In this document: one piece after another, positions 4,321 to 61,054 of the stretch
How positions within the stretch are numbered: position 1 is the first letter of the stretch
Layout: each line of letters starts with the position of its first letter
Origin: Naegleria gruberi
Lineage: Eukaryota
Reading direction: 5' to 3' (one strand)
Length of the DNA: 64,000 nt
Assembly: GCA_000004985.1 (NCBI GenBank)
Contig: GG738849.1
The notes under the pieces: model-generated
Databases searched by the model: none
The model's input: the letters and a program-made list of their open reading frames with translations, nothing else
What the model was told of the DNA's origin: nothing
Position numbers and translations under genes: made by a program

Positions 4321-4321
4321 T

Positions 4322-4997
4322 TTAAAACTTTTTACTCTTTCTCGATGAACCAACTCCTTGTTGTTGATTATAGTTTTGGACTAAATTACGTACAGATACA
4401 GCAAAATTCAGAGAATCAATTTTCTCTCCAAATGTATAAAAAGGATTACAAATACAATCAATATATAAAGAATGAAGTTGTTGGAATAATGATTTGATTT
4501 CCGAATCTCTGTCCGATTGTTGATATTCGTCTCCTGCAATTATTAATAATAATTTAACATCACTGTTCGTTATATATCCATAAACTTTGTAAATTTCAGT
4601 TGGGAAAAGAAGACCCAAATACATGTCATTTTGACTAACATTTGTTGTTGTTTTACGATTGCTGATCTTTTCTTCAACAATATCCAAAGCTGTGTGAGCA
4701 ATGTAGTGATACTTGAGAGGTTCTTCAGCCTCTGCTGTTTTATAAACTTTAAGAAATAGTGGATTATTCTATTATTATTATTAATTATTAATTATTTAAA
4801 TAGATAAATATTAATTTCATAATTTTCCAACGTTGATGATTGTTAATATTATCAATGATGATGGTGTAAAATTCCGCACAAGTTGTGAATCACATTAAAT
4901 ATATTGATCAACATTTAAGTTTGATCACACTCATAAAATCATAATTTCTTCCACATACCTTCTTGCCAATGATTGACAAACAACAAATACAAGACAT
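4322..4997 (-). CDS. TRAPPC2L: Trafficking protein particle complex subunit 2-like (sedlin family). Exons 4959..4997 and 4322..4768, about 200-nt intron.
   Basis: Exon 1 MSCICCLSIIGKK followed by a gtatgt donor. Exon 2 ...NPLFLKVYKTAEAEEPLKYHYIAHTALDIVEEKI...YKVYGYITNSDVKLLLII...CNPFYTFGEKIDS is colinear with human TRAPPC2L. Confidence 0.8.
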
Positions 4998-5036
4998 TTT
5001 ATAATTTATTAAAAATAATATTAATATCGTTGGAAA
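4998..5036. promoter_or_regulatory. 39-bp A/T-rich bidirectional promoter interval between divergent start codons of TRAPPC2L (-) and PCBD (+).
   Basis: ATG of the minus gene at 4997 and ATG of the plus gene at 5037; intervening sequence tttataatttattaaaaataatattaatatcgttggaaa. Confidence 0.5.
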
Positions 5037-5513
5037 ATGCTCAAAAATCTAATTGTTCGTTCTTCATCATCAAAGCCATCATCAATACTCTGTAAATATC
5101 ATCTCTCCAACTCTTTCCTCCAAATCAATAATAGCAAATCAATTCAAATGAGAAAAATACATAAATACACTGATGAAGAATTGAAGGTAGAATTGGCCAA
5201 AATACCATCATGGGAACTTCATCAAGAGACTAATAGAAATGTGATCCGAAAGAATTTCGTTTTTAAAGATTTTAAACAAGCTTGGGCTTTTATGAATAAA
5301 GTAGCCGAGAAGGCTGATCAGGTAAGTAATAATATCCTAACAAGAATGAATTCTAATTCTTCTTCATAATAGGCCGATCATCACCCAGAGTGGTTCAATG
5401 TTTATAACAAAGTCAATATTGTCCTTTCTACTCACGATTGTGGAGGCTTATCACAACGAGATGTTGATCTTGCCTTGTTTATTGATTCTGTAGCCACCAA
5501 CTCTAAACAATAA
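5037..5513 (+). CDS. PCBD: Pterin-4a-carbinolamine dehydratase (PCD/DCoH) with an N-terminal presequence-like extension. Exons 5037..5321 and 5373..5513.
   Basis: PCD signature ...[39 protein letters not shown] (HHP-x-W ... HD). gtaagt donor at 5322, AG acceptor at 5371-5372, frame preserved. Confidence 0.75.
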
Positions 5514-5654
5514 ATTCCTTCCTCCAATTCCTCTTATACTTGTCTCACCTTGTTATTGTGTTCTCGTCTTTATCAAACATCACCTCTCTTGCATCACAAC
5601 CAAAACAATTTAATAAATAAATTTTCATCACCATTAGAATTAAAAAATCAAAAA

Positions 5655-8600: not shown

Positions 8601-10054
8601 TTAATTCTATGGATGTAAATGTTGATGATTGGCCATTTAAGGTTACAGATGTTAAGGAATACGAAGTTAGTACTGAAATTAAGGGAAGAATGCTCGTTGG
8701 TGAAAGAAAGGTTACTGATCAACTCAACTCTGGTAGAGATGCAAGTCTTACTACTCCACCATCTCTGGGAGGTATGCCATCTTCTGAAGAGGAAATTTCC
8801 AAGATGGACATGACTGATTTCCTTAAATGGTTGGGTTATGGAACCATGTCAGTTGGAAAGGAAAATCTTGAAGAGGTTGGTTTCAAGGATGACTTTGGTG
8901 GTCAAGGAGGATCAGCATCAATTGAAGAAGATGAGCCAGCAGGTAAATCAACAAGTAAATTGCCACCACTACCACACAAGTTGCAAGCTCCACCTTCCTT
9001 GGATGTACCAAACGGTTCAACTACATCAGCTACAGAAGCATCAGAGAAGGATGATGATGAAACTAGTGAAATGACATCCACAAAAGATCAAAAATCAAAG
9101 AGAAAGGGTGACAGTGATTCTGATGATAGCGATTCTGATGATGAGGAAGAAGATAAAAGGACCAAGGCATTCCAAGGTCTTAAGATTAAGGAAGAAGTTA
9201 TCTACAAGGATGCTTCAGCCACCGATATTAGAGATTCCATGTCAGGACTTGGTGGATTGGGAGGAGCCAGTAGTAGTCGTAATAGAAGAAGAAGAGGTGT
9301 CACTACAATCAACAACAAGCAAGAGTCAGCCAATGATTCTACCCAAGAATCACCAACACCTTCTACACCATCCAGTCAAAGCAATGAAGACGACGGACCT
9401 AAGCTTGTTAATATTAATCCAACTCAATGCTTGAAGGATGGTATGACAGCTATGGAAAAAGGTGACTTTAAGGAAGCAAGAAATCAAATTGTTTCTGCTA
9501 TTTCAGCTCTAGTTAAGGATAGTACTCAAATCCTTAAGAAGAATAGTATTATTCTTTGTGTAAATTACAAATTATTGATTCACTTGTTAGCCAGAATAAG
9601 AACAGTAGAAAATCAAGCCGATGCCAAAGAACTCGCCAGATTGGCAACATTTATTTGTCAAATCAATGTAATTAATAAGCATAAGATTGTCTGTTACAAT
9701 ATGGGTATCAAGAGAAATATGAATGCTGCCAACTATGGTATCACTAGCTCGATTATCAAGCAATTTATTCCACTCACCGAAAGTATTCCAAAAGTGAAGG
9801 AAGAACTTCAAAAGAGATATCAAGAATGTTCTGAAAAGGGATTCTCTAATGCTGATGCACAATTGGCACAACTTTTCTCAGAGGCAACAGAAGAAAAACC
9901 ATTGAAATTCTGTTGGAAGACTTATCAAGTTATTTCATCACGACACTTGAAGTGTTCATATTGCTCAAGTTTAGGATGTATTTCTGATACTTGTGCAGAA
10001 GATAGTGTTTGTTCATATTGTACATATGGTAATATGGAGCTTGTAGAAGAATAA
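5655..10054 (+). CDS. Large WD40 beta-propeller + alpha-solenoid protein (about 1350 aa) with a Cys-rich C-terminal tail: vesicle-coat/tether-like (protocoatomer) architecture. Exons approximately 5655..5778, 5852..6304, 6354..6795 (frame problem near 6420) and 6854..10054.
   Basis: WD repeats (SVSFHPTQNKIAIG, ASASQDGVIKVWE, GTREGSIKVW), a long helical region, an acidic Ser/Asp-rich insertion (SDSDDSDSDDEEED, about 8880..9400) and a C-terminal CSYCSSLGCISDTCAEDSVCSYCTYG motif. Family assignment (HOPS/CORVET, TSET/TTRAY, SEA/GATOR-like) not resolved. Confidence 0.6.
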
Positions 10055-11911: not shown

Positions 11912-12075
11912 TTTTTCTTGGAGAGTTTTTGGAAAGGCGCCACATTACAATTCAATAAACAAATAAATTGGTTGTGAATATTGGAATATTGATAAATGTA
12001 GGCAAGAAAGACTGTAATGAAGGGAACATTTGAGGTAATAATCAGCAATAGAGTCATGACGATGAGAGAGTGAAT

Positions 12076-13878
12076 TTATTGTTGATCGACTTGGTCATAG
12101 AGAAGAGAGTGAATGAGGGAAGGAATGGAAGTTTTTGATTCTTGAGCTTGGAGGGAAAGGAGATTGGCCAGCTCTGGATCTTTTTGGAGGTGAGTGAACA
12201 TGCTGGTGGCTCTAATGTTTTCCAATTGAATGTTGTAATAGATGTGGATGTATTCAGTGTTGAAAGAGGAGAGGATGAGGACCAGTTCATTATTGTGTCG
12301 GGGAGTGAGCGAAAATTTTCCACAATAACAATTGGCTAGTTGGTTTTTGAAATTGTAGGTCACGATATTCTTCTCGTGGTCGAGAATGTAAATGATACCA
12401 TCCCATGATGTTATCAGTAATTGAGAATTTTGAGAGGATGTAATGAAATTGTGCGCACTGAGGGAGAGAATTTCATGTTCAATATTGACAAAATAGTCGT
12501 AATATTGATGATAGTTTTGCTTAGTGATGGTATAGTTGGGTGCGTGAACGATGGTGCCTTTCGTGGAGAGGATCTCTTCTGTAATGTTGAATTGTTTGAA
12601 TGGATCGATTACTATGACTTCTCCGCTCAATCCTGAGAGGGCTACACATTGATTTTCTCCAAATTTCACATTACCAACCACTGTGAGAGGTTCATTCTTG
12701 AAATTAATATGTTTTGGTTCAATAATTATTACAGTATCTATTGATGAAATAATTCCAAAACCTCCTGATACAAATCCTAATATTATCGAATCATTGTGAA
12801 TGGAAATACTATTAACTTGATTATCCTTCGTGTAAATTTCCTTCAAAAAAACAAAATCGACTCCATTTTGCTTTTCCATAAATTTGTAAACAAAGAGGTT
12901 TCTATTATTTCCTCCAAAAATGATTTCCTCAACTCCATCCTTATCAATATCAAAACTAATTGCACAATTAATATTACATGGAATCCTCGAAGTTAAAAAT
13001 GGAAGAATTGCCTCACTTCTATTTCTTGAATTAATGTGAACTGTTGGTTGATGGAATTGTGCAGTCGGTGGAGATGGACTTCTTGAAGGTGGCACAAAAT
13101 TGCCCTGTTCAGTTGGTGTTATAGGTGTAGTATCAAGTGATGTCTTACTCGAATATGAAGAAGGTATATGCAATGGTGTTGGTATATCTTGTCCAGTTCC
13201 CAATGATGACAACATATCATGAAAAGGATTCGATTGACTATCAGCAGTCATGGAACTATCATAACTATTCACACTGATATTATCATTTTCCATAGTGTAG
13301 GGATGATTCGTATTAAAGGTAGTTTGACTTTCCACACTTTGTGCATCATCAAAACAATTACTAAGAGTTGTCGATGGACGTTCTGTGAATTTGAAAAAGT
13401 GTACTTCTCCCTCAGCACAAATAACAATTAAAATTGGCATTGCCTCCCAACATCCACACGATGAAGCAGGTAATTTTCCATAAATTATTGCTGAAATCTA
13501 AATTCATTCCGAAATTAATCATATTCAACAATTAATCCAAAATAAATAAATTATTCATAATCATAATAAATTAAAGTCAATATTCATAATAATAATAATT
13601 ATAAATAATAAATTATATTACCAATATATATCCAAATCAATTCAAATAAAACCCACCGTTCCTAAATTAACACAAACATATTTCGGATACTTGTATTGAA
13701 TAAATTGATAAATACACAATGTTCCGTTAATATTTCCAATCACCAATTCTCTCAAACCATCTCCATCAACGTCTTCCAAGAGAATGGCATTCTGAGCAAG
13801 GCTTGTTTTTTGATCAAAGTACAAATCATGCGAATCGACAAAGGAAACTTGTCTCAGCGTCGGATGTTGTTGAATCAT
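12076..13878 (-). CDS. ITFG2: ITFG2-like FG-GAP/beta-propeller protein (KICSTOR subunit ortholog). Exons 13657..13878 and 12076..13497.
   Basis: N-terminus ...NAILLEDVDGDGLRELVIGNINGTLCIY matches the ITFG2 motif [26 protein letters not shown]. ...ITSWDGIIYILDHEKNIVTYNF matches [20 protein letters not shown]. C-terminal ...SLLYDQ tail. Donor gtgggt, acceptor AG, phase 0. Confidence 0.6.
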
Positions 13879-16824: not shown

Positions 16825-18534
16825 TTAATTGAGGACTGGTACTTTTTCCTGTTGTTTATCTTCTACTTCAGTTAAAGATTCAATTTCTGTAAGTAACAGT
16901 GATAAATAAACATCAATCTTTTTGCATCCAACACTATCACCCTTCTTTTTCAACTCTTGTTGTTGCTTTTCATATTGTAATATCTTTTGTTGCAGTTTTG
17001 GTACCACCTCTAAAGGTTTGAATTTGTTCATCTTTTTCTTGAGATTGAGCATTTTAAGTTTCAATGTACAAAACTCCTTAATTTCTTCATTGTTGGAGTT
17101 GTCTCGTTCATATTCCAAAATGGAAAAGCTGTCTGTTGGTAGATCATCCGTAGTTGGGAAGGATGAAATTGGTTCTTCTGGCTTGTTGCTTTCCGATGTT
17201 TTGGAGCCTTCCTTTTGAGGTGTTGTAGGTTGTTTTTCAGTGGATGTTGGCTCCAAATTTCCCATTTCTAATCTTTCCAATTCTTTACTCAGCTCTTCTT
17301 CATTAAATTCCAAACCTTGAGCCTTGTTCATTTCTTCCATTCCAGAATCGATTATATTTTTGATTTCCTTATAGTCAGAGAGTGCCTCTGCAATATTTTC
17401 AAGAGACTCGTCTTGAATGGTATTCAGTTCTGTATTGAATTGTTTTAAAGTTCCTGCTCCTACTGAAAGACTCTTAATAACTTCAATATCAGTAGTGGCA
17501 TTTTCAATACTGCTCAATAATTCAAAAACATTATGAAGAGCTGCATTTCTCTTCTCTAAAATATTGCTAACAAGCTTTTTCTTCTTTAAAATCCATTTGG
17601 CTTCATCCCTCTTACCCTTGGTAATGTATTCTTTTGCTTGGTGGATGAGACTTTCCATCTTTAATTCCAAACTTTTGACTTCCTTTTTGAGTAAACTCAT
17701 ACTTTCTTTCAAGTGAATAATACCAGCAGCTTTCTGTGAAGACATTTCTCCTTGCTTTAAAAATGTCTTTTTGATTGCTGCTTCCTCAAAGCAGACAACA
17801 CCCTTTTTGGAATTTGAAATTTCAATCACATAGGCTGCCTCTTCACAATGCATATATCTCAATAGCAAATCCAATTGACTGAAATCATAATTCGGAAAGT
17901 GAATTTCTCTCAATTCACTTGGACAAAAGTACAAGTCAACATTTGTTACATGATTTTTCACTGCATTTCTAATAAAATTATAAGTTATTTCCTTGAGAGG
18001 TTTCATGACAATATATTGATTATCTTCATGGATCTTGGTATTATTTACAGCAACATCTGATCCAGTATTGGTCAAGGAACTTTGTCTTCCAAAGAACCAT
18101 GTTGTGGCCACATCCACCAACCAACTAGTTATTCCCTGATTATTACTAATATCATACACTTTTTTAAATTCATTAATTGAAATCAAATCTCCATCATGAA
18201 TCATTTGTTGCTGTATAAATTCAATCATTCTATCAAGTTTATAAAATTCAAAACTTACAATGATAGTTTGCCATCCCAATGTAGTTTCCACAATACCTTC
18301 ATCACTCTTCTTACGTCTACTCATGAAAGTTTTCATTTGGCCAATCGTAACAATCAAGATTGAATTTTTATAAAATTCCGAAATGATCGATAAGAGAACA
18401 TTCCTCCAAAACTTTAATCTAGTATCCCAATCATTGATATTAATTTGTCTAGACTTTTTAAAATTGCTCATGTAAAAGAGCATTGATTTATCGTCCTTCC
18501 ATTCTGGAAATTTTCTCTCAACAAATTCATTCAA
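16825..18534 (-). CDS. CHMP7: Charged multivesicular body protein 7 (ESCRT-III-like; N-terminal winged-helix plus C-terminal Snf7 domain).
   Basis: N-terminus ...PEWKDDKSMLFYMSNFKKSRQININDWDTRLKFW matches human CHMP7 [36 protein letters not shown]. C-terminal Snf7-like coiled coils and an acidic tail. Confidence 0.8.
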   Translation of the reverse strand: MNEFVERKFPEWKDDKSMLFYMSNFKKSRQININDWDTRLKFWRNVLLSIISEFYKNSILIVTIGQMKTFMSRRKKSDEGIVETTLGWQTIIVSFEFYKLDRMIEFIQQQMIHDGDLISINEFKKVYDISNNQGITSWLVDVATTWFFGRQSSLTNTGSDVAVNNTKIHEDNQYIVMKPLKEITYNFIRNAVKNHVTNVDLYFCPSELREIHFPNYDFSQLDLLLRYMHCEEAAYVIEISNSKKGVVCFEEAAIKKTFLKQGEMSSQKAAGIIHLKESMSLLKKEVKSLELKMESLIHQAKEYITKGKRDEAKWILKKKKLVSNILEKRNAALHNVFELLSSIENATTDIEVIKSLSVGAGTLKQFNTELNTIQDESLENIAEALSDYKEIKNIIDSGMEEMNKAQGLEFNEEELSKELERLEMGNLEPTSTEKQPTTPQKEGSKTSESNKPEEPISSFPTTDDLPTDSFSILEYERDNSNNEEIKEFCTLKLKMLNLKKKMNKFKPLEVVPKLQQKILQYEKQQQELKKKGDSVGCKKIDVYLSLLLTEIESLTEVEDKQQEKVPVLN

Positions 18535-21057: not shown

Positions 21058-21749
21058 AGTAAAATTGTAGTAGAATCTTGTTTGTTTTTTTAGATTTGGT
21101 TTTTCTCTCAGAACGCAATCATCTCTCCAACTATTTATTCAAACCAGCACTCTCAGGAGTAGCACAAAATCAGCACATCGTACAGCAGATCATGATGCGT
21201 CCTGTTGCCAATTATTCGTTGATTGCATCCCGATATTACCAATGTGCAGAATTCATATAAACGTGATGGTATTATCCTCGAAAAAACCAAAAGAATTTTG
21301 CTTGACTGAAGATCGAGATGCAACAGCTTCAGTTTTGGCGAGATTCGAAAAACGAGAATCTATGCATTTTTTTGGGTTTTTACTTTGTTAGAAATTTGGC
21401 GCCAATTGATTGGTTGTTTGTGGCTACTATTTGGACAAGGAGAATAGTTGGTGGTTCTTTCAACAGTCAAAATGTCAAAAAATGTGTTTGTGTCCAAAAT
21501 AGAGAATTACTAAATGTTGTTCATTTGGATTTATTGAACTTGGTTGAGTTGCATTACAATGATTATTGAGTATTATTGGGAATTAATATTGTTGAGCAAG
21601 AGTTTATTTATATGATTAGTTTGGATTATTGATGCATTTATTCGAATCAAACATTCCAACAGCATACAACACGGATTTCCATTGCATGACAAGTTTTCAA
21701 TACAATATCAAATAAAACACTCAACGTTTACAATTTCATAATTGCAATT

Positions 21750-23129
21750 TTATTTTCTCTCTAATAGAGATGCAATACTAGGTAGGAAACGAATCGAATT
21801 CTCTCCCTCACTTTCATCCTCCGACAAATGTTGCGCATCGTAACCTCTAGTTCTGAAACTCTTTTCTGTATTGGCCATTATTGAAAACCCTGCCCTCTGC
21901 TCTAAACCAAATGGTTGGTCATTGCCACTATTTGGAAACAGATAACAATTTGAAGAAGGACCACTATTTCCATAATTGAATGGTTGGTGTTTTGATTGGT
22001 TTGGATTCAGGTCGTCATGCATTACACAAATATCGCCAGTCAATGACATGGATGGTAGTGAGTGTTTTGGTGAGGGAAATGATGGTGATTGTGAAACTGT
22101 AGTTGAGGGAGTTTGGATGGATTTTCTATTGTAATGTTGGTGCTCTGAATCTTGGTGTTGACTGGATGGATTGCAACAACAGGACTGCTGTTTGGTTAGA
22201 TTGGTAAGAGATTCTTCATTGATTCGCTCATGATCTCTTTTACCAGTGACTAGATACAGAATTGAGGAGGAAATATCCTCGAAAAAGGAAGAAGATAATC
22301 CACTACTGCAATTGCTTCCATTGTTTAAATGTGGAGAAATTAACGAATCGTGATTATTTTGTGTGTTTGAATCTGTGTTACCCATTGTGGTTATTGAAAG
22401 TAAGAGTGGAATCTGATTGGTTTGATTTCGGTTTGTGAGTTGTTGTGGAATCTTGAACGAATTGGTCGACGAATTGGATAGAACTGGAGAGGAAGTGAAT
22501 GGAGATGGAGTGGACAATGGTTGTTGTTCACTTGTAACCATCATTCGATTAGGATTCATTATTGAATGTTGATTATTTAGAGTTGGAGAATTGCCACTTA
22601 ATGGTAGTTGTTCCCTGTTTTGATTTGAATGAGGAGGTGGTAATGAATCAGTCGAATGCTTTCGTTTCTTCTTCTTACTTTCGAATGAGTTATGAGTCAA
22701 TGGTGAGTGTGAAGAATAATCACTCTGTAAAAGTAAGTTGGAAATATCACACGAGCCATCGAATGGATTTTCTCTCTTCTTATTTGTTTTCTTATTCGAT
22801 TCAAAGACTAAAAGTGAGCAGTGTGGAATTTGTTGTTGCTTGTTTTCCACAACAACCAACTGCTTTTGATTGCAATTAGATCTTGTTTGTTTCTTCTTCA
22901 TGCTGTTATCTGGCATTGGTTTAATTGTATTTCTTTTTTGTTGAAGATTAAAGCAAAGTTGCTTTGAGTGGTACAATTTCAACCAAATAACTTGGCGTAC
23001 ATAACAATTCTGGTGTGCACGATATTGGTTATGTTTCCTTTCAACGATCAATTGGACATTCGTACTGTATGGTTTTATATTACGATACGATAGTTCATTC
23101 ACTTTATGGATTATACACGTATTGTCCAA
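21750..23129 (-). CDS. Asn/Gln/Ser-rich low-complexity nuclear-type protein; function unknown; 5' boundary uncertain.
   Basis: 459-aa ORF with KKKRK-like basic patches and Q/N/S/T homopolymer-rich tracts. Confidence 0.35.
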   Translation of the reverse strand: MDNTCIIHKVNELSYRNIKPYSTNVQLIVERKHNQYRAHQNCYVRQVIWLKLYHSKQLCFNLQQKRNTIKPMPDNSMKKKQTRSNCNQKQLVVVENKQQQIPHCSLLVFESNKKTNKKRENPFDGSCDISNLLLQSDYSSHSPLTHNSFESKKKKRKHSTDSLPPPHSNQNREQLPLSGNSPTLNNQHSIMNPNRMMVTSEQQPLSTPSPFTSSPVLSNSSTNSFKIPQQLTNRNQTNQIPLLLSITTMGNTDSNTQNNHDSLISPHLNNGSNCSSGLSSSFFEDISSSILYLVTGKRDHERINEESLTNLTKQQSCCCNPSSQHQDSEHQHYNRKSIQTPSTTVSQSPSFPSPKHSLPSMSLTGDICVMHDDLNPNQSKHQPFNYGNSGPSSNCYLFPNSGNDQPFGLEQRAGFSIMANTEKSFRTRGYDAQHLSEDESEGENSIRFLPSIASLLERK

Positions 23130-24024: not shown

Positions 24025-24991
24025 ATGAAAAGAGAAGGAGAAACAGCAATGGCCGATGATGGAGAGTTAGATTATTCTGAACTTGTTGATGAGATTGGAA
24101 TTTCCTCCGATTATGATGAAAATTATAAATCATTGAAGGATTTTTGGGATGTTGCAGAGAAGGATTTTTATCAAAAATCAACAGATTATTGGAAGGAAAA
24201 GGTTACGAATGATATGAATGGAATGTTGGGAGGTTTTACTCATGTTCACGATAGGGATATTAAAGAGAGTTCGCTTTTATTGAGTAAAGTTTTGGAGGAT
24301 GTTACACCAGGTAGAGAAGGAGAAAAGTCTTTCATGTATTGTTTAGAATGCGGAAGGTATGTTTTATTTGTATTTGATTAGAAAAATAATTGTTAATGAT
24401 GATGACGATATTATTATTACTTTGGATGTAACAAAATAATATTGTTAATTAATATTTAATAATGTTAAAATAGTGGAAATGGACGTGTTACTAAAAATTT
24501 ACTGTCTAAACATTTCGATTATATTGATTGTGAGGATGTTAATGAGGAATTTTTGATTAAAGCCAAGGAAGAATGCAACAAGATCAAGGAGACTTATGCT
24601 TGTGCATTGCATGAATTGTCAAGGGTCATTCCAGAAGAATGTAAAGGAAAATATCATGTAGGTTTATTCATTTTGAAAATTTATTGACATTGTACAGTGT
24701 ATTTGGGTTCAATGGTGTGCCTGTTTCTTGACTGATAGAGATTTTGTCAAATTTTTGGAATATTGTTATGAATTACTAGTTGATGGAGGAGTTTTGTGCT
24801 TCAAGGAGAATATTTCAGGAAAGGGTTTTGTTGTTGATTCAGATGATGGCTCAATAACTCGTAGTAATAATCACTATTTGTTTTTATTTTCACAAGTTCA
24901 ATCCAAATTTGAAGTTATTGAAAATACCAAACAGAAAAATTGGGAAAAGGGTTTATTTGCTCTCAGAATGTACTGTTTAAAGAAGAAGTAA
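24025..24991 (+). CDS. NTMT1: Alpha N-terminal protein methyltransferase 1 (NTMT1/METTL11A-like). Exons 24025..24356, 24474..24657 and 24698..24991.
   Basis: ...DGMLGGFTHVHDRDIKESSLLLSKV matches the NTMT1 motif DGMLGGYGHISSIDINSSRKFL. SAM-binding ...YCLECG/SGNGRVTK. ...YHCIWVQW matches DVIWIQW. Donors at AG/gtatgt and CAT/gtaggt, AG acceptors, frame preserved. Confidence 0.75.
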
Positions 24992-24992
24992 A

Positions 24993-26437
24993 CTAAACCA
25001 AATGGACCAATAAAACATCACCATGCTCAAATTGTAATTGAGGTGTTGTGTATGGGTCAATTGGTGTCAATACTCCATTTCTCTTCAACTTGATCTGCGT
25101 TATGGATTTTAACATGTTATTATTCCACAACTTTTTCTCATTGACCATCTTTTCACTCAATTGTTCACACAAGAATGAGAATGTGCAACATTTGTGAATT
25201 GAAAACTTGGAAGTCATGAGTGAATTTTCATAATGTGAATAATCTGCCACTGTTAAAATCTTCGTCTCATCAAAGAAAATGACAAACATGGCAGCTTGAG
25301 CAGTTCCATTTGGTGAAAATTGAGGAGTCACTACTGGATATTGTTGATGTGAATTGGATGATGGTAAGGAGAAGAGTTGAGAAAGGAATGGAGCTGAGGA
25401 TGGAGACGTGTTATAGAATTGAGCAGCAGCTGCACTTGTTGATAAATTGGATGTCATGATATTTGGAGTTGTGGTGTTATTATTACTAGTAATATTACTA
25501 GTAATATTGGAATTGGAATTATTGGATTGATCTAGAATACAAAATGGCTGAACCATTTCATTGTTACTATTCGAAGCAGATGCTAACTGTACATTTGGAA
25601 TGCCCATCAATGGATGGTGATCTTGTTGTTGATTGTGTCCATTACTGGTTGTGGCTTTCATTCTCTTCATGGCCAATTCATTAATATCCAAAGAATTTAA
25701 CATTTTGGTGGTTGTGTCTTGTCCTAAAACCATATCCACAAATGATTTGGAAGGAGAGGATGCTGTAGAACTCACTGTTGCTGTATTTAAATTATTCGTA
25801 TTGTTATTATTAAATTGATTGTAAAGTATCATGTTGGAATATTGAGGAGTTGAAGAATTGTGGATATTATTATTATTTGGAATGGTATTGGCCATTTCAT
25901 TCAGTAATGATTGAAGAGAGTAAGCAGTTGTTGGTTGGTGTGGAATTTGTGGAAGAAGGGTTTCGACTTGATTATTCGATTTCACATAATTATTATCCGT
26001 GGGAATGCTTTCCAATAAATTCAAGAATTCATCATCTTGATTTGAAAGTGCATTCCAGGGAGTCAACAAATCATTTTGTGAATTCTGTAATTGATCAACT
26101 GGATTATTTTGGTCAACTGTGGTAGTTGTGTTTGTGGTCGTCACCAACGAAGTCAATGAACGTTTTCTCTTCTTTGATGATGAAACCTCTTGATCAGAAG
26201 AGGAACAGTTAGATGATCTTTTCAGAGAATTATTAGATGAAGTTTCCTCTTCATCAATTCGAAGGGTTTCGTCCTCCTCTTTCGAAGAAGATGCAGATGA
26301 TGAAGAAGCAAGGGATAATTTCCTTGAATTTCGTTTTCTCTTTGGTTTTACCTCTGAATTTTCCGTTTGATTATTTTCATTATCACCACCACATCCATTT
26401 GAATGGTGACTATTACCATTTTGATTCTTATTAAATC
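24993..26437 (-). CDS. Asn/Thr/Gln/Ser-rich low-complexity protein with a conserved-looking C-terminal domain. The ORF continues upstream of the track start to an acceptor near 26437. Possible further 5' exons at 26823..26888 and about 27016..27120 (Cys-rich).
   Basis: In-frame extension ...SNGCGGDNENNQTENSEVKPKRKRNS...SSSKKRKRSLTSLVTTTNTT... precedes the track Met. Candidate upstream exons end in gtaagt donors and encode CVCCKRYNLHY and GVCCNSCYNKQ motifs, but no start codon was found. Confidence 0.4.
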
Positions 26438-26902
26438 GATACTATATATACATGTGTTGGTAGATGATAATGATTATCCAAGTAGTGGCCACCACATACA
26501 CATCATGGTAATCAACATGTGTGTTGTTGATGATAAAGACATTGAGGGTTCAACACAGCATGTTGTGTGTCGAAACGCAAATGCAGCATGGAAGATAGCA
26601 CACATTGTAGGCCATGATTGAGAATGATTTTTCGCGCGCAAATGGAAAGAAGGACAATTTACAATTCCGAATCCAATATTGTTATTAATGGTAATGAGGC
26701 AATCGTTCAGCACACACATTCACAATATAACAACAACAGCAGCAGGAGGCAAAATGTTGTTGATGATAATGTTTCATCAATATATTCATTAAAATCTATC
26801 GAGAGAGAATATTCTTACTTACCTGCTTGTTATAACAAGAGTTGCAACAGACGCCAATTGGCACCTCAAAGTTGAAGGCTGCTACATACTGCATTCATAC
26901 AC

Positions 26903-26950
26903 ATGTGATGATGATGATGATGAATATTAATGATGAAGATGATGATGAAG
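26903..26950. repeat. Simple-sequence (GAT/GAA)n tract.
   Basis: gatgatgatgatgatgaatattaatgatgaagatgatgatgaagaagat, read directly from the sequence. Confidence 0.7.
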
Positions 26951-29224
26951 AAGATTGTGTGAAAATGGAAAGAAGAAGGGTTTAGGATAATTCAAAGGTA
27001 GGTGAAAATACTTACAGCATCTCTGTTGCTTGCATTGATATTATACTTTTTAGAGTAGTGGAGGTTGTATCGCTTACAACATACACAAAGATTGCTTCCA
27101 TCCTCGTTGGGAATATTCTTGTGTTTGGTCTTGTCGCCAATGATTGCCATAGAGTCCATTAGTTTGTTTAGAATAAAGTTATTCTATGTTGAAGAGAGAG
27201 GGTTGGTGGTAGATGAACAAAGATTAATTGTGTGTCTTTGTGTAAAGTTGTTGTATATTGATCTGGAATGATCGCAAAGAGTAACGACTTGGTTGACCAG
27301 CAACAAATTAGACGAAATGCTGGTTGTGTCAATAAATATTTGCGTGATGCAAAGATTCTCGGTAGAAGTAGGTTAAATAGAATTTGATTGGTTTTTTTTT
27401 GAGCAAATTGTTTCGAATAGTTTGGGGAAATAAACCTGTTGCGAAACACAAAATTGGTATTTGGCACTAGTGGAGCGAGGAGTGTGGTTTTGGTTGGGTA
27501 TAACCTTTCTTACAAACCAAACACTTATTCTTTTTTTTTGATGTTGGCTTGGAAGAAATCAGACGAAAGCCTTGTGAAATATGTTTCGAATAGAGGGATG
27601 CATAGACTCCTTGTGTGGCCTTTCAAAAATTCCCATTCAGGTATGTCAATACTTTTGGAAGATAGCAGAAGAAGTCACCACCATGAATGGTGAACAATAC
27701 ACAAACTAAATTTTGCACAACAATTATTCGAAACAAGCAAAGAAACATAACCTTGTGATTTCTACCACACCTTCCAGCCAACATTAACTGTGCGTGGTGA
27801 AAAGATTTCTTCATCTTCTACCTCCACTTTTAGAATCCAGCCCTCCGACTATTGACATAAATTTTTATCGGAAAACCCACCGATTGTTTTTGGGAATGAT
27901 TTTTCAGGGGATTTTCAAATGATTCCGAAAACAGGTTTTTTGTTTGAGTTGAACAAAGTTTTCTTCAGCAGCAGAATTTGAGTTTACAAATGAATATGAG
28001 ATATGGAATTTTGCAATTTTACAAGTTTATGAGGTGTAGTATGGATGGTGGAAAGTGTGTTGTGAAAATTGCTGTATTTACAGTTGTAAATGGGTAGAGT
28101 TTCGAATTGAAAATTGGTTTCGTTTTGGTGTTTGTAATAATGGGTCTTTCTGTGAGGAGTTGCAACAGGAGAATAGAATTATGCGGTGCCAATCACGATT
28201 TGTCTCTCGATTATTTAGAATGTAGTTGCAATTCATTCACAGTTTCGAATTGAAAGCATGCAACAGATAACACAATTTGTAGACAATACCATTTAAGAAA
28301 CAAATGATTATTCCTCTTGAAACCTTCTCTGAAATTTTCAACTAACGCGTAAAAACATTTCCCCAAAGTTTGTGAACGTCATATGCCAAGGTCACATCAC
28401 AATTTTCCTTCACTACCATTTTGGTATTTTTGCAACTATCAATTTTCTTTGGATGATCGAATCCCTGCCATACACAGCAAATTGGAGAAAATTCATTTTC
28501 GCTGGAATAACTTGTGCAAATTTAGTATCAGATAGAGTTAGTTAACCTTGAGTCAATTAGGGCACTTTCTAATAAAATTAGAGGAAACCTATATTATAGT
28601 AGATGAGGAGAATAAAACATTTACTTTTGGGTGAATTGATATTAAAAACTATCAACTGGCTTGTTAAGGGGTTTATCCACTACTCATCACTCGAGAGAGA
28701 TTTTGAATTTAGTGTACACGAACCATATGTTTGTTATGAACAAGGAAATGATTTTCATTTATCACAGCACTGTAGTTTTACTGTAGTGGAGAGAGTTGTT
28801 GGGTGAGGTTGGTATTAGAGTTGTTGGGTTTTTGGTTGATAGGATTGGTTGACCAATCTGTATTGTGTTGGAAATTGTGAAAAAAAATGATGAGAATGAA
28901 GGGGAAGAAATGAATCGAGTTTGAAGAAGGACATGTTGGCTTGCTAATCGGAAGAGTTTAGGTAAGATGTCTTGATGAGAATTTATTAGAAAGTTCAACC
29001 TAATGATGATTACCATTTTTATTGGATATTTCCATCATTAATTTTCATAATGAAAATTTAAATGATTCGATCATCGGATTTTGGAACATGTACTCGGTTC
29101 TTGTGTATTAAAAAGTACAGCTCAAATATTTCTCATAGCTCTAGATTCGTATTGAATTTTTGAATCTCACAAATATGAGGAAGGACAATTATTCGAAAGA
29201 AAACTATTCAGAAATAAGAAACTT

Positions 29225-30552
29225 TCAAACTTGTTGCTCATCTTCCACAACAATTTCAACACATGTGTATGATTCATCCACATTTGACTTATCCTTCGCC
29301 TTGAAATCTCTCATTTCTGAAATCATTTCATTAATGGATCGATTGACTGGAGCTCCAGTTTCTAATTCTTGACTTATTGGACCACTTTCGACACTAACAG
29401 CAGCTCTTGGAGATTCCTTTTTCTGAGACGAAACACTCATCCTTCTAAACATAGTTTGAACTTGATAAAGTGGCGAATAAATTGCTAATAGAAAGCAAAC
29501 TAAACAAACATATCCAATATTATAAAACCCATGAAAAATCACCGTGCAGTAGGGCCACAACAATGAAAATGGAATGAACACAAACCCACAAAACTGAATA
29601 ATCATTGAAATTGTAATTCCATATTGTAAAAGAGTTGCATTTCGAAGTGCCTTCTTTTTCATTTGTAAACTCGATTCCAAACTCTTATCAGTTGCATTCT
29701 GATTGTTGAGAGTTTTTCTGAGGGAGTCTACTCGATCTCTGGCGATTTTGAGATTTTTCCTTAATAATCGTCCGGAATAGTTTAGGATAATGGAAAAGAT
29801 GGTTATGGAAATGAGGAAAAGGAGTGAGGCGAAGACCATGAGGCCTATTAAGAGATTGGATAGAAGGGATTCGTCCACTAGTTTGAAAGCTGAGGCGAAA
29901 CCGAATAAGAGACATAAACTAGCTGAAAGAAATACAAAGAGGGAAATGGCTATAAGAAATATAATGACCGTGATTCTAATTCTTTTGAAAGTCTTTTTTG
30001 TAACATTTCCTGTTGATTCGGAAGTTTTAAAACTGTTTCGAATAAATTGTTTATTGTAAAATTACAATTCATTGACTGAAAAACTTACAAAACCATTGAA
30101 ATATGCGCCATTATCAGAATAGACAGTAAAACTCCCAAATTATTACAAACTCTACCAATTCCCTTCATTATCGAAGAAGAAACCAACACGGCATTCGAAT
30201 CACTTATCAAATACAATAATTCATTTGCCTCCCTCACCCACATGTTCAAATTTACAATCGCCAATAAGACAATCAATAATCCGAATAGTATATGTTGATT
30301 CCTCGCCAAATATTTATATTGAATTGCATAATTTATCACAACAATTAAGAAGAGGAAAGCAAACACCAATACGAACGGTGCACTCATTCCGAGGGTGATT
30401 TGTCTGAAGAGTGAGAATTGTCCAATATTACTAGCAGCACCTGCTGATGAAGTTACATTACTGTTGGTTGTGTTGCTAAGTAAAGATGTCGTTATGTGTT
30501 GCAGGAGAAGCAAGTTTCGCGTTGTTGATAAGAGATGAAGTTGTTGTTCCAT
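29225..30552 (-). CDS. Seven-transmembrane (GPCR-like topology) membrane protein. Exons 30089..30552 and 29225..30032, with a 56-nt intron at 30033..30088.
   Basis: The two track ORFs (29225..29878 and 30085..30810) join through a gtaagt...aacag intron in phase 2 to give one protein of about 420 aa with seven hydrophobic helices and a cytoplasmic C-tail. Start taken as MEQQLHLL (ATG 30552). The 5' part of the 30085..30810 track ORF is an artefact that overlaps the tRNA. Confidence 0.55.
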
Positions 30553-30715
30553 TGTTTTACAGATAAAAGCGAAATGAGTTATCTCAACCAAAAAGCAGAA
30601 CTTTCTATCATGGGTGAGTTTCATATGAATGTTGTTAGCATCGTATCTCTCCCGAAATGATATTATACGAATGAGTAGAATGGGTGGCAAGATTTCGAAT
30701 CTGTGGCTTAACAGC

Positions 30716-30723
30716 CAAAAGAT
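30716..30723 (-). terminator. Pol III terminator T-run immediately 3' of tRNA-Thr.
   Basis: Minus-strand ATCTTTTGG directly after the tRNA 3' end. Confidence 0.55.
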
Positions 30724-30797
30724 TGCCTCCCTTGGGAATCGAACCCAAGACCTCTGTCTTACTAGGACAGCGCTACTGCCAACTGAGCTAGGAAGGC
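30724..30797 (-). tRNA. tRNA-Thr, anticodon AGT (AGU); no encoded CCA.
   Basis: Minus-strand GCCTTCCTAGCTCAGTTGGCAGTAGCGCTGTCCTAGTAAGACAGAGGTCTTGGGTTCGATTCCCAAGGGAGGCA. 7-bp acceptor stem, anticodon stem CTGTC/GACAG with loop CTAGTAA, T-arm GGTTCGATTCC, and A/B box-like elements. Confidence 0.85.
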
Positions 30798-30890
30798 TTA
30801 CGGTAAGCATATAAAACGCCTTAATATCAATCTAATAAGAGCTATTGTTCTAATAATAGTCTGTGGTTTACAGATAACACAAAAGAAAAA

Positions 30891-31919
30891 ATGTCTTCAT
30901 TTGTTCCATCAACCAAGTTGGCAAGAGAAAGAGCTTTGGATAAATCAACATTGCCTCCGAAGAAAATTAAGATTTATTATGATGAGGATGCATTCGTTCC
31001 ATTAGGAAAACAAAAGAAAGGATCATGGTTAGTTGAACATAAGGAAGTCGGGCAAACCTTTCCATCCTATGAAAGAGGTTCATTCAATAGGATCAAGTAG
31101 GTAGAATATTGATAATCTCAATTTATTAACTTTAATCTATTTTGAATCAATTATTATGAAATATTTCTATTGATTCATTTAAATCATTTAATTTCAATAT
31201 TCAATTATTCCTGCAGAGGATCAAAACAAAATGTAATTTATATTTGCTGTTTGGAGGAATTTCCAGAAGATCAACCTACCAGATATCCATCCATGACCAT
31301 TCTAGTTGAATTTCTTAAGAAATTCTATTGGGGAGTTGAAGTTAAGCTATTCAAAGATCCAACAGGTTACAAAACATTTCCAACCCGACTTAATGACGGA
31401 GTTGAACAATACAAAGCCCCTGACATTCTCAAATATCTCAAAAAGGTCATTCCCAAGGATGCTTACTGTATCATTGCAGTAACAATGGTAGATCTGTATC
31501 CAAGGGATGAGTGGAATTTTGTCTTTGGTTTTGCCTCTTTAGAGGAGAGAGTAGGAGTTTTTTCATTTGCAAGATATCATCCGGATTTCTATGGTGAGGA
31601 CCATTCACAATCTCCCTCAGACATTGAGAGAAATATATTGAGGAGGAGTTGCAAAGTGGCTTCTCATGAGATTGGACACATGTTTGGCTTTAAGCACTGC
31701 ATCTATTACAAGTGCGCAATGAATGGCTCAAATCACATGGAAGAGAGTGATGAACGTCCATTAGAGTTGTGTCCAGTAGAATTGAGGAAATTGCAACACT
31801 GTATTGGTTTTGATGAGAAGGAAAGATATCAGCAATTGTTAACTTTCTTCAAAAACCATCCTCAAATGTTCTCTTCAGAAATTCAATGGTTCACGGAGCG
31901 ATTGGAGTACATTAACTAA
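30891..31919 (+). CDS. AMZ: Archaemetzincin (zinc metallopeptidase, AMZ family). Exons 30891..31096 and 31217..31919.
   Basis: HEIGHMFGFKHC ...C...C motif (HEXXHXXGX3C plus CxxC-like Cys residues: CIYYKCAMNGSNHMEESDERPLELCPVELRKL). Donor gtaggt, acceptor ctgcag, frame preserved. Confidence 0.75.
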
Positions 31920-32058: not shown

Positions 32059-33841
32059 ATGGTCAAATCCCTTCTGATAGCACTCACACTCTGTGTTATC
32101 TTCTCCCTTGCCAATGCACAACTTTCCGAAAAGTTGTTAAATTCCCAATACGTCCAATTACATAGTGCTCCTCTTGTTCCTCAAGGATGGACTCGTTTCT
32201 TTGACCATGCCAACATTTCTCCAAACATCGTTGGTGAAGTTTTGAATAATCAACGTACCAAGATTACCTTTGCTTTGCATTCCCAAAATCTCGAAGTTTT
32301 GAACTCTAAATTTGAAGCCATCACTGATCCAGAATCACCACTGTTCAGAAAGTACATGACAATGGATGAAGTTGCCAAATTGACCTCTCCTCACTCCTCC
32401 CACAAGTCCATGGTTATGGAATATATTAAATCCATTCCAGAAGCCAAGATTGTCCAAGTTTCTGCTCATGAAAACTTTGTTACTGTCGATATGCCATTAA
32501 AGTCCATCGATCGTTACTTTAAAACTAAGATGACTCCATTCATTCATAAGGAATCTGGTAAGATTATCTATCGTTCTGAACAAGGTTTCGCTCTCCCACA
32601 ACCATTGTCCTATGCTGTCAAGACTTTGATTGGTGTTCACAATTTCCCAGTTTTCCAACATAAGGCCAAGCAAACTCGTGTCATGGCCAGTGATTCCCTC
32701 ACTACTCCACAAGAACTCTGGAGAAGATATAACATTTCTCTTCCAACAAGCACTTCACCAAAGAGCTCACAAGCTGTTGGTTCATTCTTAGGTCAATATG
32801 TTTCAGTTGAAGATTTGCTCCAATTCCAACAAACTTACAATTTGCCAATTACCAAGCCAACCATTATTGGTCCAAATGTTGATTCTGAACCAGGTGTTGA
32901 AGCTGCTCTCGATATTCAATATATTATCTCAACTGGTTATTTGATTAATACCACAATTAACTCCACTCCAAAGAAGTACGATGATGAAGATCCATTCATG
33001 TATTGGGCCATTGCTCAACAAAAGATGGGTGACAAGAGTGCTTGGGTTCATAGTATTTCATATGGAGGTGTTGAAAAGTACATGCCAAAGGATTACTTGA
33101 CTAGTCTCGATTTGGAATTCCAAAAGTTGACCATTACTGGTAGATCAATTTTGATTGCTTCTGGTGACAATGGTGCTCGTTGTTCTGATTCTGGTGATTC
33201 TTTCGAACCAGAATGGCCAACTTCCTCTCCATTTATTACTTCAGTTGGTGCTACTCGCCCAGATTCCAGATATGTTGAAAGATCTGTCAGTTGGGGTGGT
33301 GGTGGTTTCTCTGCATTGTAAGTTTTTCAAAGTACTAATTTGTTGAATCTAATAATTTTAGCTATCCACGTCCAAAGTATCAAGCTGATGCTGTCACTGC
33401 TTATTTGTCTCAAAATGCTGTTCCACCAACCACTTATTTCAATGTTAATGGTAGAATGTACCCAGATATTGCTGCTCTCGGTGTTGAGTATGTATTTCTA
33501 TAATTTTTGAAATTTTAACACTTTATAGTTATCAAGTTGTTGTCAATGGACAAATCCAATCTGTTGCTGGAACTTCTGCTTCCACTCCTGCAGTTGCTGG
33601 TATTATCTCCTTATTGAATGATTTGAGATTCAAGGCTGGTAAGGGTCCTTTGGGTTTCTTGAATCCATGGTTGTACAAGGTTGTTTTGAATACTAAGGGT
33701 GCTACTTTCGATATTGTTCAAGGTAACAATGCTGTTTCTCCTTGCCCTGGTTTCCCAGCAACACAAGGTGCCGATGCCATCTCTGGTGTTGGTGTTCCAA
33801 ACTTTGCTGTTTTGGCTAAACTTGCTGTCCAAAGTGCTTAA
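32059..33841 (+). CDS. TPP1: Sedolisin / tripeptidyl-peptidase I-like serine protease (S53) with signal peptide and pro-kumamolisin activation domain. Exons 32059..33317, 33362..33487 and 33529..33841.
   Basis: Signal peptide MVKSLLIALTLCVIFSLANA, a pro-domain, catalytic region with SGDNGA and the Ser motif GTSASTPAVAG. Two short gtaagt/gtatgt introns keep the frame. Confidence 0.8.
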
Positions 33842-33970
33842 ATAAAAAAAGATTTTATATTAGAAATAGTATTCATTATTTCTAATGAATTGATTCATCA
33901 TTTGATTTATGTGTTTATTATTCAATATTTGGAAAAGTATTAAGGATGTATTTGAAACAAAATTTTTATA

Positions 33971-56347: not shown

Positions 56348-56361
56348 ATTTACAAAAAAAA

Positions 56362-60941: not shown

Positions 60942-61054
60942 ATTAAAATATTATCATCATCATCCGAATGAAATAACATTTTTTAAAATTGTAACTTTAA
61001 ATTAGGGATTTTTAAATTAAAGGCGCCACTATTAGGTTTTTTGAAAAGACAATT

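Follow-up and report, generated by a model that had tools for sequence, protein, structure and literature searches.

A one-base tail-to-tail junction between an NTMT1-type methyltransferase gene and a lineage-restricted gene in Naegleria gruberi

Introduction

What does it mean that the stop codons of two convergent genes of Naegleria gruberi lie a single base apart: are both genes real, is the one-base spacing itself selected, and where would the two transcripts end? Naegleria, whose genome measures 41 Mb, is neither a reduced parasite nor an endosymbiont but a free-living amoeboflagellate. 3'-3' cis-natural antisense pairs are known in the compacted genomes of microsporidia, nucleomorphs, Giardia and yeasts, and a work entitled [quoted passage not shown] reportedly deals with overlap linked to compaction. 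For convergent or antisense overlap in Naegleria, our literature search found nothing specific. The DNA analysed here, hereafter named the window, is a stretch of 64,000 nucleotides of N. gruberi nuclear DNA (GenBank assembly GCA_000004985.1, contig GG738849.1). In agreement with this origin, four of its ORFs without introns are identical to N. gruberi RefSeq proteins encoded on a scaffold of 850,158 bp.

Results

One base separates the two stop codons

The direct strand of the window reads aagaagaagTAAaCTAaacc at positions 24980-24999. The plus-strand gene, of the NTMT1 type, ends with TAA at 24989-24991, and the minus-strand gene, hereafter the partner, ends with CTA at 24993-24995, that is TAG on its own strand. 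The spacer is the following:

24992..24992, no strand: single base "a" between the stop codons, with the same junction in metagenome contig L004

A stop-to-stop ORF scan delimits a plus-strand frame at 24677..24991 and a minus-strand frame at 24993..26441 with a gap of 1, which confirms the one-base separation reported in the first-pass annotation. Base 24992 divides both coding regions, and there is no antiparallel overlap of coding sequences. L004, 95.5% identical to the window, crosses the junction unchanged and reads TAGtTTA on its own strand. Since it carries the same junction sequence, the match argues against an error peculiar to the N. gruberi assembly, although it does not check every base of the window.

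The plus-strand gene is an NTMT1-type methyltransferase

The plus-strand gene has three exons encoding 269 amino acids, joined by the sole combination of GT-AG splices that keeps the frame open:

24025..24356, plus strand: NTMT1 exon 1, matching positions 2-63 of PF05891 and aligning with the N. fowleri and Willaertia orthologues
24474..24657, plus strand: NTMT1 exon 2, whose join to exon 1 holds the SAM-binding motif ECGSGNGR
24698..24991, plus strand: NTMT1 exon 3, ending in the stop TAA (24989-24991) and matching PF05891 positions 135-218 of 218 (E 2.8e-16)

Exons 1 and 3 score 42.1 and 60.2 bits against the Pfam profile PF05891 (Methyltransf_PK), whose gathering cut-off is 27, and the match runs to the last profile position (218). 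The spliced protein holds the class I SAM-binding glycine-rich motif LECGSGNGRVTKNLL. It is 71% identical to an N. fowleri protein (95% of the query covered) and 59% identical to a Willaertia protein (94% covered). Judged by profile, motif and full-length orthologues, the gene is assigned to the NTMT1 / Methyltransf_PK family of protein N-terminal X-Pro-Lys methyltransferases, in agreement with the first reading of the locus. It fits the profile end to end and has orthologues in N. fowleri, N. lovaniensis and Willaertia. The C-terminus is conserved, with LRMYCLKKK in N. fowleri, MYCLKKQ in L003 (a deeply diverged metagenomic relative) and MYCLKKIKL in Willaertia. The family itself has no bearing on the junction, and this member is unremarkable save for its reference annotation, which is incomplete: reference protein P0006 is 100% identical to our model across the splice and is partial. 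The start was placed at the first ATG (24025), with an alternative ATG at 24049.

The partner gene codes right up to its stop

The partner also comprises three exons, in a frame restored by GT-AG introns of 127 and 381 nt. Its product of 552 amino acids is Cys-rich at the N-terminus, followed by a long linker rich in N, T and Q and by a C-terminal domain of about 100 residues:

27016..27159, minus strand: partner exon 1, with its ATG at 27159; MDSMAIIGDKTKHKNIPNEDGSNLCVCCKRYNLHYSKKYNINASNRDA; 81-82% DNA identity to exon 1 of L003 and L002
26823..26888, minus strand: partner exon 2; YVAAFNFEVPIGVCCNSCYNKQ; matches residues YVAAFKFDVPLGVCCNSCYNKQ of N. lovaniensis P0010, and L003
24993..26441, minus strand: partner exon 3, a 482-codon open frame including the stop TAG at 24993-24995

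Such a gene could be questioned. Most of it is N/T/Q-rich low-complexity sequence, it has no Pfam match, and no N. gruberi reference protein was found for it by homology search. These features would fit a reading in which the C-terminal part of the minus-strand ORF is non-coding, the terminal exon ends upstream, and the one-base abutment is an ORF artefact. We consider that reading effectively refuted, its remaining probability being negligible. The 482 codons stay open in a genome of 33% GC, and the codon-usage score of exon 3 stays within 0.14-0.44 from end to end, the last scoring window before the stop giving 0.17; in the training genes used as reference, in-frame sequence scores 0.33±0.15 and out-of-frame sequence -0.63±0.47. 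An exhaustive phmmer search of 1.84 billion representatives retrieved two relatives, P0010 (N. lovaniensis C9374_011413, E 1.3e-16) and P0012 (E 1e-4), which both match the partner at their extreme C-termini and share the same final aligned residue. The last 100 amino acids are 46% and 29% identical to these orthologues, the C-terminal domain has 22 invariant columns in the three-orthologue alignment, and the ends are flush (GDVLLVHLV, NDVLFVHVM and NDILIVHVF). In the 95.5%-identical strain, the gene contains in-frame indels only, and its last 135 residues are unchanged. The first-pass annotation had named an upstream end of the terminal exon as the point to check; the frame was found to be coding up to the TAG, and the minus-strand gene to be real.

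A third phmmer match, P0011, was rejected as an orthologue, being an unrelated repeat protein. An earlier word-indexed search for homologues of the C-terminal 135 amino acids gave no match, which reflects a limit of that tool. Overall, the partner is a lineage-restricted gene.

Structure prediction bears on the same end of the protein:

24996..25316, minus strand: C-terminal globular domain of the partner, with a beta-grasp-like predicted fold (AlphaFold2 and Foldseek) and VLLVHL as its last beta-strand

The AlphaFold2 model, built from the three-sequence alignment, predicts the domain with confidence (mean pLDDT 80.2, pTM 0.74). Its last strand, VLLVHL, spans residues 101-106 of 107 and ends one residue before the partner stop; this predicted strand reaches the stop in all three orthologues. 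Foldseek returned weak matches only from the PDB, the best being the beta-grasp domain of SSL7 (E 7.8e-4, TM 0.49), with ubiquitin, SUMO and UBL proteins at TM 0.3-0.5 only. These similarities lend weak support to a beta-grasp-like fold. Because both ORFs are real genes, the junction is not a chance meeting of two random ORFs.

The same locus in relatives

In L003, the same two genes are convergent with a 2-nt gap (TAAatCTA), even though the last exons of NTMT1 are only 71% identical between N. gruberi and L003. In N. lovaniensis, both genes are kept but the convergent arrangement is absent, and NTMT1 is the downstream gene, on the same strand as the partner. In Willaertia, NTMT1 faces a different convergent neighbour. 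Conservation of the abutment at orthologous loci, which the first reading had suggested comparing, is thus seen in L003 and not in N. lovaniensis. A metagenome scan with the NTMT1 last-exon alignment for further heterolobosean junctions yielded only distant NTMT1s (32-39% identity).

Tight spacing is common, with no sign that one base is a special value

Gaps at the nine convergent junctions of the window measure 1, 18, 6, 1, 129, 179, 75, 55 and 113 nt, so that four of the nine are at 18 nt or less (1, 1, 6, 18). The other 1-nt junction (4320/4322) reads TAAtTTA, and its minus-strand gene encodes a Sedlin_N protein (E 8.8e-32). Convergent gaps in Willaertia magna are 17, 1 and 12 nt, the 1-nt case being at 17521/17523. 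Tight convergent spacing is common in this lineage.

The exact 1-nt spacing (TAA-N-YTA) might still be a selected functional element and not the low end of compaction, such as a bidirectional terminator or a processing site that both genes share. Three of the eight tight junctions (18 nt or less in the window, Willaertia and L003) are at exactly 1 nt, with a nominal P of about 0.005 under a uniform 0-20 nt model; none is at 0 nt or overlapping, and two lineages that diverged deeply both keep NTMT1 and the partner within 1-2 nt. However, the excess does not survive correction, the value 1 having been picked post hoc. The remaining tight gaps are 6, 12, 17 and 18 nt, in addition to the 2 nt of the orthologous L003 junction, and the arrangement is gone in N. 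lovaniensis. The spacer base and its flanks vary (TAAtTTA, TAAaCTA and TAAaTTA, besides the L003 sequence), and folding of the RNA across the junction revealed no significant hairpin or terminator-like structure (z = -0.9, with an equally good fold in 36 of 200 shuffles). A selected one-base element is therefore very improbable. The first-pass argument that two 1-nt cases in 64 kb speak against chance holds for close tail-to-tail packing, which recurs systematically here and in related genomes, and does not extend to the 1-nt value: the two cases reflect genome-wide compaction with no special element, the tight gaps ranging from 1 to 18 nt with no common motif.

A purine context at +4 of the stop codon was also considered as the reason for a gap of 1 rather than 0; it was rejected, since T is the commonest +4 base among the listed gene ends and purines are not preferred there. 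The sole hit of the Rfam and tRNA scans was a tRNA-Thr located well away from the junction.

Candidate polyadenylation signals lie within the neighbouring coding sequence

Direct-RNA data give N. gruberi 3' UTRs a median length of 39 nt, or 22 nt where the stop codon has a dual use (PMC11529991). The top hexamer, AAUAAA, lies 15-20 nt before cleavage and is depleted in coding sequence, and U-rich downstream elements are reported (PMC11529991). Tight packing is workable because these 3' UTRs are very short. On each side of the junction, candidate signals of this kind were located:

25009..25014, plus strand: candidate NTMT1 poly(A) signal AATAAA, 17 nt past the NTMT1 stop
24952..24957, minus strand: candidate partner poly(A) signal AATAAA, 35 nt past the partner stop
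25042..25056, plus strand: candidate GU-rich downstream element GGTGTTGTGTATGGG (direct strand), past the predicted NTMT1 cleavage zone at about 25030-25035
24926..24951, minus strand: candidate U-rich downstream element and cleavage zone (about 24931-24936) cccuuuucccaauuuuucuguuuggu, directly 3' of the minus-strand AATAAA

The hexamer at 25009-25014 is antisense to the partner codons GTT TTA TTG (V-L-L), within the last strand, and that at 24957-24952 is antisense to the NTMT1 codons GGT TTA TTT (G-L-F). In the coding sequence of the window, sense AATAAA is depleted about 12-fold (4 sense vs 48 antisense occurrences in 39.9 kb). The hexamer occurs between -5 and +54 at 9 of the 32 gene ends of the window, vs 6.7% expected (P = 1.8e-4), and a 60-nt stretch of antisense-coding sequence would contain it by chance with a probability of about 7% on each side.

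AATAAA is not a universal downstream signal of tight junctions, an idea that we rejected: within 80 nt of the stops, none was found at three other tight junctions of the window (4320/4322, 10054/10073 and 16818/16825). Hence, the embedded-AATAAA model is not general, and other hexamers are needed there. In L003, AATAAA is present on one side only, that of the partner.

Dual-use stops have been described together with ultrashort 3' UTRs in N. gruberi and Giardia (PMC11529991), thus in the same organism and for the same AAUAAA-based machinery. The present junction differs. Neither stop (contexts aagTAAact on the plus strand and gttTAGttt on the minus strand) overlaps AATAAA, and the hexamers follow 17 and 35 nt after the stops, in the coding sequence of the facing gene. 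True dual-use stops are found elsewhere in the window (12075-12080, 21749-21754 and 61054-61059). The main text of that paper contains neither "antisense" nor "neighboring", and uses "convergent" solely in "convergent evolution".

Codon choice at the hexamer was compared among relatives. The G-L-F codons of NTMT1 are GGT TTA TTY in N. gruberi, L003 and Willaertia, the three taxa with an abutting convergent gene, and GGC CTT TTT in N. lovaniensis, where none abuts. The GGT-TTA combination is expected at a frequency of about 0.09, and the coincidence concerns a small sample of three taxa that are perhaps not phylogenetically independent. Synonymous-codon identity is slightly, and not significantly, higher in the last 20 NTMT1 codons (54-64%) than upstream (43-52%).

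Discussion

We consider it probable that the junction joins two real convergent genes that compaction has brought to within one base, and whose 3' ends lie inside each other. Compaction would have reduced the intergenic DNA between the NTMT1 and partner 3' ends to a single base. Because both termini are conserved, the LRMYCLKK tail of the methyltransferase domain in NTMT1 and the predicted last beta-strand in the partner, the coding sequences would be hard to shorten or to overlap, and the stops would set a hard limit. With 3' UTRs as short as those of N. gruberi and a spacer of 1 nt, transcription of each gene, with its cleavage and polyadenylation, would then run into the last exon of the other. 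NTMT1 would probably use the AATAAA at 25009-25014 and the partner that at 24957-24952; each would sit on the antisense strand of the facing codons, where AATAAA is not selected against. The predicted 3' UTRs would be about 40 and 60 nt long, and the two mRNAs complementary over about 100 nt. Such a mutual 3' overlap is the likely mechanism, as far as the sequence can indicate.

The locus thereby resembles the cis-natural antisense pairs of compact genomes, which likewise consist of convergent genes with little or no intergenic DNA and with 3' signals inside the neighbour, here putative ones. It has two real convergent genes and a spacer shorter than the median 3' UTR. It differs in that the coding sequences at the Naegleria junction do not overlap, the transcript overlap being a prediction. 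A tight junction of this kind is ordinary for a compact genome, and compaction-driven 3' overlap is already well known.

A functional coupling of the two genes goes further. The reciprocal embedded signals and the complementary ends of about 100 nt would link expression of NTMT1 with that of the partner, by transcriptional interference or by double-stranded RNA and RNAi, and this mutual dependence would also preserve the pairing over long spans of evolution. The position of each AATAAA within the conserved terminal codons of the other gene, the shared GGT TTA TTY codons and the convergent pair common to N. gruberi and L003 despite the divergence of their NTMT1 last exons all point this way. 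On the other hand, N. lovaniensis has split the pair while keeping both genes, Willaertia NTMT1 has another convergent neighbour, and the overlap zone shows no significant rise in synonymous constraint. Convergent 3' overlaps in other compact genomes are, moreover, mostly seen as by-products of compaction. We regard coupling as unlikely, if less so than a selected spacer. Equally doubtful is a 3'-end interlock, in which each poly(A) signal, antisense within the conserved terminal codons of the other gene, would place a double constraint on the same nucleotides, from the protein of one gene and from the 3' processing of the other.

For annotation, the junction means that convergent genes in Naegleria can adjoin to within one base, and gene callers that forbid overlap may truncate or drop such models. 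Whatever the cause, the NTMT1 reference model at this locus is partial, and homology searches returned no reference protein for the partner. Strand-agnostic RNA-seq will misassign reads at such junctions.

Beyond compaction, the locus offers a clean, testable case of putative cleavage and polyadenylation signals inside the coding sequence of a neighbour in a free-living eukaryote, with a possible constraint on synonymous codons. If the interlock were true, it could help to explain why the pairing has persisted at 1-2 nt across deeply diverged heterolobosean lineages, and the complementary mRNA ends could couple expression of the two genes. If general, it would amount to an unrecognised layer of constraint on codon choice in compact free-living eukaryotes.

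A one-base gap between the NTMT1 and partner stops

Positions 24980-24999 of the window read aagaagaagTAAaCTAaacc. Direct reading and a stop-to-stop scan of both strands (plus frame 24677..24991, minus frame 24993..26441, gap 1) agree with the first-pass annotation, which placed the ends of NTMT1 and of a minus-strand N/T/Q-rich gene, hereafter the partner, one base apart at 24989-24995.

Elements of the junction, by direct reading
24989-24991, plus strand, NTMT1 stop TAA
24992, spacer base 'a' between both stops
24993-24995, minus strand, partner stop TAG (CTA on the plus strand)

The same junction sequence occurs in L004, a metagenome contig that spans it, which argues against an error peculiar to the N. 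gruberi assembly. The window (~34% GC) carries densely packed long ORFs with few, short introns, and four of its intronless ORFs are identical to N. gruberi RefSeq proteins (XP_002681755, XP_002681602, XP_002681762, XP_002681611). Judged from its sequence, it is nuclear DNA of N. gruberi.

Of the GT-AG splice combinations, a single one keeps the NTMT1 frame open; its product has 269 aa.

NTMT1 exons, sole open splice model
24025-24356, plus strand, exon 1
24474-24657, plus strand, exon 2
24698-24991, plus strand, exon 3

The assignment of this gene to the NTMT1 type is borne out by orthologues in N. fowleri (71% identity) and Willaertia magna (59%) and by Pfam PF05891 (Methyltransf_PK, NTMT1 family), of which exon 1 matches positions 2-63 and exon 3 positions 135-218 of 218, so that the family profile ends essentially at the NTMT1 stop. 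The C-termini read ...LRMYCLKKK in N. gruberi and N. fowleri, ...MYCLKKQ in L003 (a 2.2-kb JGI metagenome contig) and ...MYCLKKIKL in Willaertia, and the stop is real. Relative to the three-exon model, the N. gruberi reference protein (P0006, 219 aa, "partial") starts 47 residues late and stops short of the terminal KKK.

The partner is coding up to its stop

The partner's last-exon frame runs without a stop for 482 codons, as far as 26441. Its first ATG does not come before codon 181, hence upstream exons were expected. A word-indexed search, run with the C-terminal 135 aa, gave no match. Exhaustive phmmer against 1.84 billion representatives retrieved P0009, a near-identical allele on an ENA metagenome contig, P0010, "hypothetical protein C9374_011413 [Naegleria lovaniensis]" (644 aa, 47% identical, match at residues 541-643 of 644), and P0012 (288 aa, 34% identical, match at residues 187-287 of 288). 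The N-terminus of P0010 located two upstream exons in the window; the resulting model encodes 552 aa, its two GT-AG introns measuring 127 and 381 nt.

Partner exons
27159-27016, minus strand, exon 1
26888-26823, minus strand, exon 2
26441-24993, minus strand, exon 3

The product combines a Cys-rich N-terminus (CVCC...CCNSC) and basic NLS-like runs with a long N/T/Q-rich linker and a C-terminal domain of ~100 aa; Pfam gave no match. Protein searches covering the N. gruberi proteome found no reference protein for it, the matches being the ENA metagenome ORF and the N. lovaniensis orthologue only, and the gene (24993-27159) is probably unannotated in the N. gruberi reference. With only two real relatives among the representatives searched, the family seems confined to Heterolobosea. 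Upstream of the partner ATG, ~27200-29200 (~2 kb) holds no convincing ORF in an otherwise gene-dense window, and ~1.2 kb is likewise empty upstream of the N. lovaniensis orthologue; the N. gruberi stretch may be a large promoter/5' UTR region, or contain unrecognised small exons or non-coding RNA.

A real terminal exon ending further upstream would make the C-terminal segment non-coding, and several lines of evidence argue against it. Three orthologue C-termini stop at one and the same position of the alignment (GDVLLVHLV*, NDVLFVHVM*, NDILIVHVF*). Codon-usage log-odds remain typical of coding sequence throughout, with 0.17 in the last window (training genes: 0.33±0.15 in frame, -0.63±0.47 out of frame). 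In L004, 95.5% identical in DNA to the window, indels are in-frame only and the partner's last 135 residues are identical. In addition, the AlphaFold2 model of the C-terminal domain (pLDDT 80.2, pTM 0.74) places its final strand at residues 101-106 of 107. A Foldseek search with this domain (best E 7.8e-4, TM ~0.5) weakly suggests a beta-grasp-like fold.

Tight convergent packing is a property of the lineage

Convergent junctions were enumerated over the whole window, two plus-strand genes being extended to their true last exons. The nine gaps are 1, 18, 6, 1, 129, 179, 75, 55 and 113 nt, that is ≤18 nt in 4/9. Two of the tight junctions, 10054/10073 (18 nt) and 16818/16825 (6 nt), lie between long ORFs. 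The other 1-nt junction, TAAtTTA at 4318-4324 (stops 4320/4322), joins the end of a Sec63-domain helicase-like gene (4320) to a Sedlin/TRAPPC2-like gene (4322-4768, minus strand), a real Sedlin_N protein (Pfam E 8.8e-32). The three convergent junctions annotated in a 20.8-kb Willaertia locus leave 17, 1 and 12 nt between stops; the one-base case is TAAaTTA between a PQ-loop and a bromodomain gene (17519-17525, JBEGDK010000159.1). Convergent gaps in a 14.6-kb N. lovaniensis locus are 250, 38 and 206 nt. Given the tight gaps at the other window and Willaertia junctions, tight tail-to-tail packing is a property of the lineage and not of the 24989-24995 locus.

The first-pass annotation had held that two 1-nt cases in 64 kb argue against chance. 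This stands for tight packing, which is systematic, but not for the exact value. A 1-nt gap occurs in 3/8 tight junctions (~0.005 under a uniform 0-20 nt model, by our own arithmetic), and this nominal figure fails correction for a value picked after seeing the data. Flanks and spacer bases vary among tight junctions, and no significant RNA structure was found across the junction (z = -0.9). A stop codon ends in A or G while its reverse complement starts with T or C, which makes stop overlaps of 1-3 nt impossible. No junction in this small sample has a gap of 0.

Elsewhere in the window, at 56347-56362, two genes follow each other head-to-tail: a TBC-domain-like gene ends only 14 nt before the next ORF reaches its first ATG. 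By eye this second ORF resembles an RsmI-type methyltransferase, and use of that ATG would put its promoter within the preceding gene. Rfam and ARAGORN gave a single match in the window, tRNA-Thr (anticodon AGT; 30724-30797, minus strand). It falls inside a mechanical 241-aa ORF (30085-30810), towards the N-terminus, so at least that part of the ORF is not protein-coding.

The abutment is old yet dispensable

Conservation across orthologous loci is partial. Compared over the NTMT1 last exon, L003 shows 66-72% identity to N. gruberi, to N. fowleri/N. lovaniensis and to Willaertia alike, and its source is a relative about equally distant from all three; here NTMT1 and the partner are likewise convergent (TAA-at-CTA, 2-nt gap). 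N. lovaniensis has lost the abutment: the Peptidase_M54 - partner - NTMT1 neighbourhood is retained with scrambled orientations (3548-9825 of PYSW02000004.1 versus window 24025-31919), which implies small gene-scale inversions between the two species. There, NTMT1 follows the partner on one strand at a distance of 127 nt and is faced by CutC at 38 nt; its gene contains an additional intron, and its protein has acquired a C-terminal extension of 10 residues. In Willaertia, NTMT1 stands opposite an unrelated WD40 gene at 17 nt. These comparisons indicate that the abutment is old, common to two deep lineages, yet dispensable.

Proposed poly(A) signals embedded in the opposite gene

In N. gruberi, direct RNA sequencing gave a median 3' UTR of 39 nt, with AAUAAA ranking first among hexamers, 15-20 nt before the cleavage site, upstream UGUA and downstream U-rich elements, coding sequence depleted of AAUAAA, and 11-13% "dual-use" stops (PMC11529991). 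The window reproduces the published 3'-end features. In 39.9 kb of its coding sequence, AATAAA occurs 4 times sense versus 48 antisense (~51 expected from base composition, 0.00128 per nt), an asymmetry consistent with selection against premature polyadenylation. AATAAA lies at -5 to +54 in 9/32 gene ends versus 6.7% expected (P = 1.8e-4). Three stops are dual-use, or 3-4/32 gene ends counting touching hexamers, near the published 11-13% (PMC11529991).

AATAAA overlapping or touching stops
12075-12080, minus strand
21749-21754, minus strand
61054-61059, minus strand
33841-33846, plus strand

Because the spacer is only 1 nt, a 3' UTR of normal length must run antisense to coding sequence of the opposite gene. 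Candidate signals lie on both sides.

Proposed 3'-end signals at the junction
25009-25014, plus strand, AATAAA proposed for NTMT1, 17 nt past the stop, antisense to partner V-L-L codons
25042-56, GU-rich stretch 3' of the NTMT1 AATAAA
24957-24952, minus strand, AATAAA proposed for the partner, 35 nt past the stop, antisense to NTMT1 G-L-F codons GGT TTA TTT

NTMT1 cleavage is predicted near 25030-25035 (3' UTR ~40 nt) and partner cleavage, with a U-rich run 3' of its AATAAA, near 24931-24936 (3' UTR ~60 nt); the two mRNAs would then be complementary over ~100 nt. We infer these sites, lengths and overlap from the signals. The chance of AATAAA in a 60-nt antisense-coding stretch is ~7% per side. 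The G-L-F codons GGT TTA TTY, which create the antisense AATAAA, are found in N. gruberi, L003 and Willaertia, all with an abutting convergent gene; N. lovaniensis, without one, has GGC CTT TTT. This tracking is suggestive; GGT-TTA has an expected frequency of ~0.09.

The embedded-AATAAA model is not general. At the other three tight window junctions (4320/4322, 10054/10073, 16818/16825) no AATAAA was found within 80 nt of the stops, and at the last two, lacking a downstream AATAAA, other poly(A) hexamers must be used. L003 has AATAAA on one side only, and synonymous identity shows no significant rise in the overlap zone. We consider it improbable that codon choice is constrained by reciprocally embedded signals and that these help keep NTMT1 and the partner paired.

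Relation to known gene arrangements

In functional terms, NTMT1 and the partner form a convergent gene pair with a putative 3' overlap. Unlike in coding-sequence overlap, their coding regions are separate, and unlike the dual-use stops of N. gruberi, neither junction stop is one. Convergent 3'-overlapping pairs are well known in compacted eukaryotic genomes (microsporidia, nucleomorphs, Giardia, yeasts). We found no description of convergent or antisense overlap in the literature on Naegleria specifically; hence this instance and its embedded-signal detail are new, while the kind is already known. In Naegleria, such a 3'-overlapping pair is workable through the species' ultrashort 3' UTRs (PMC11529991).
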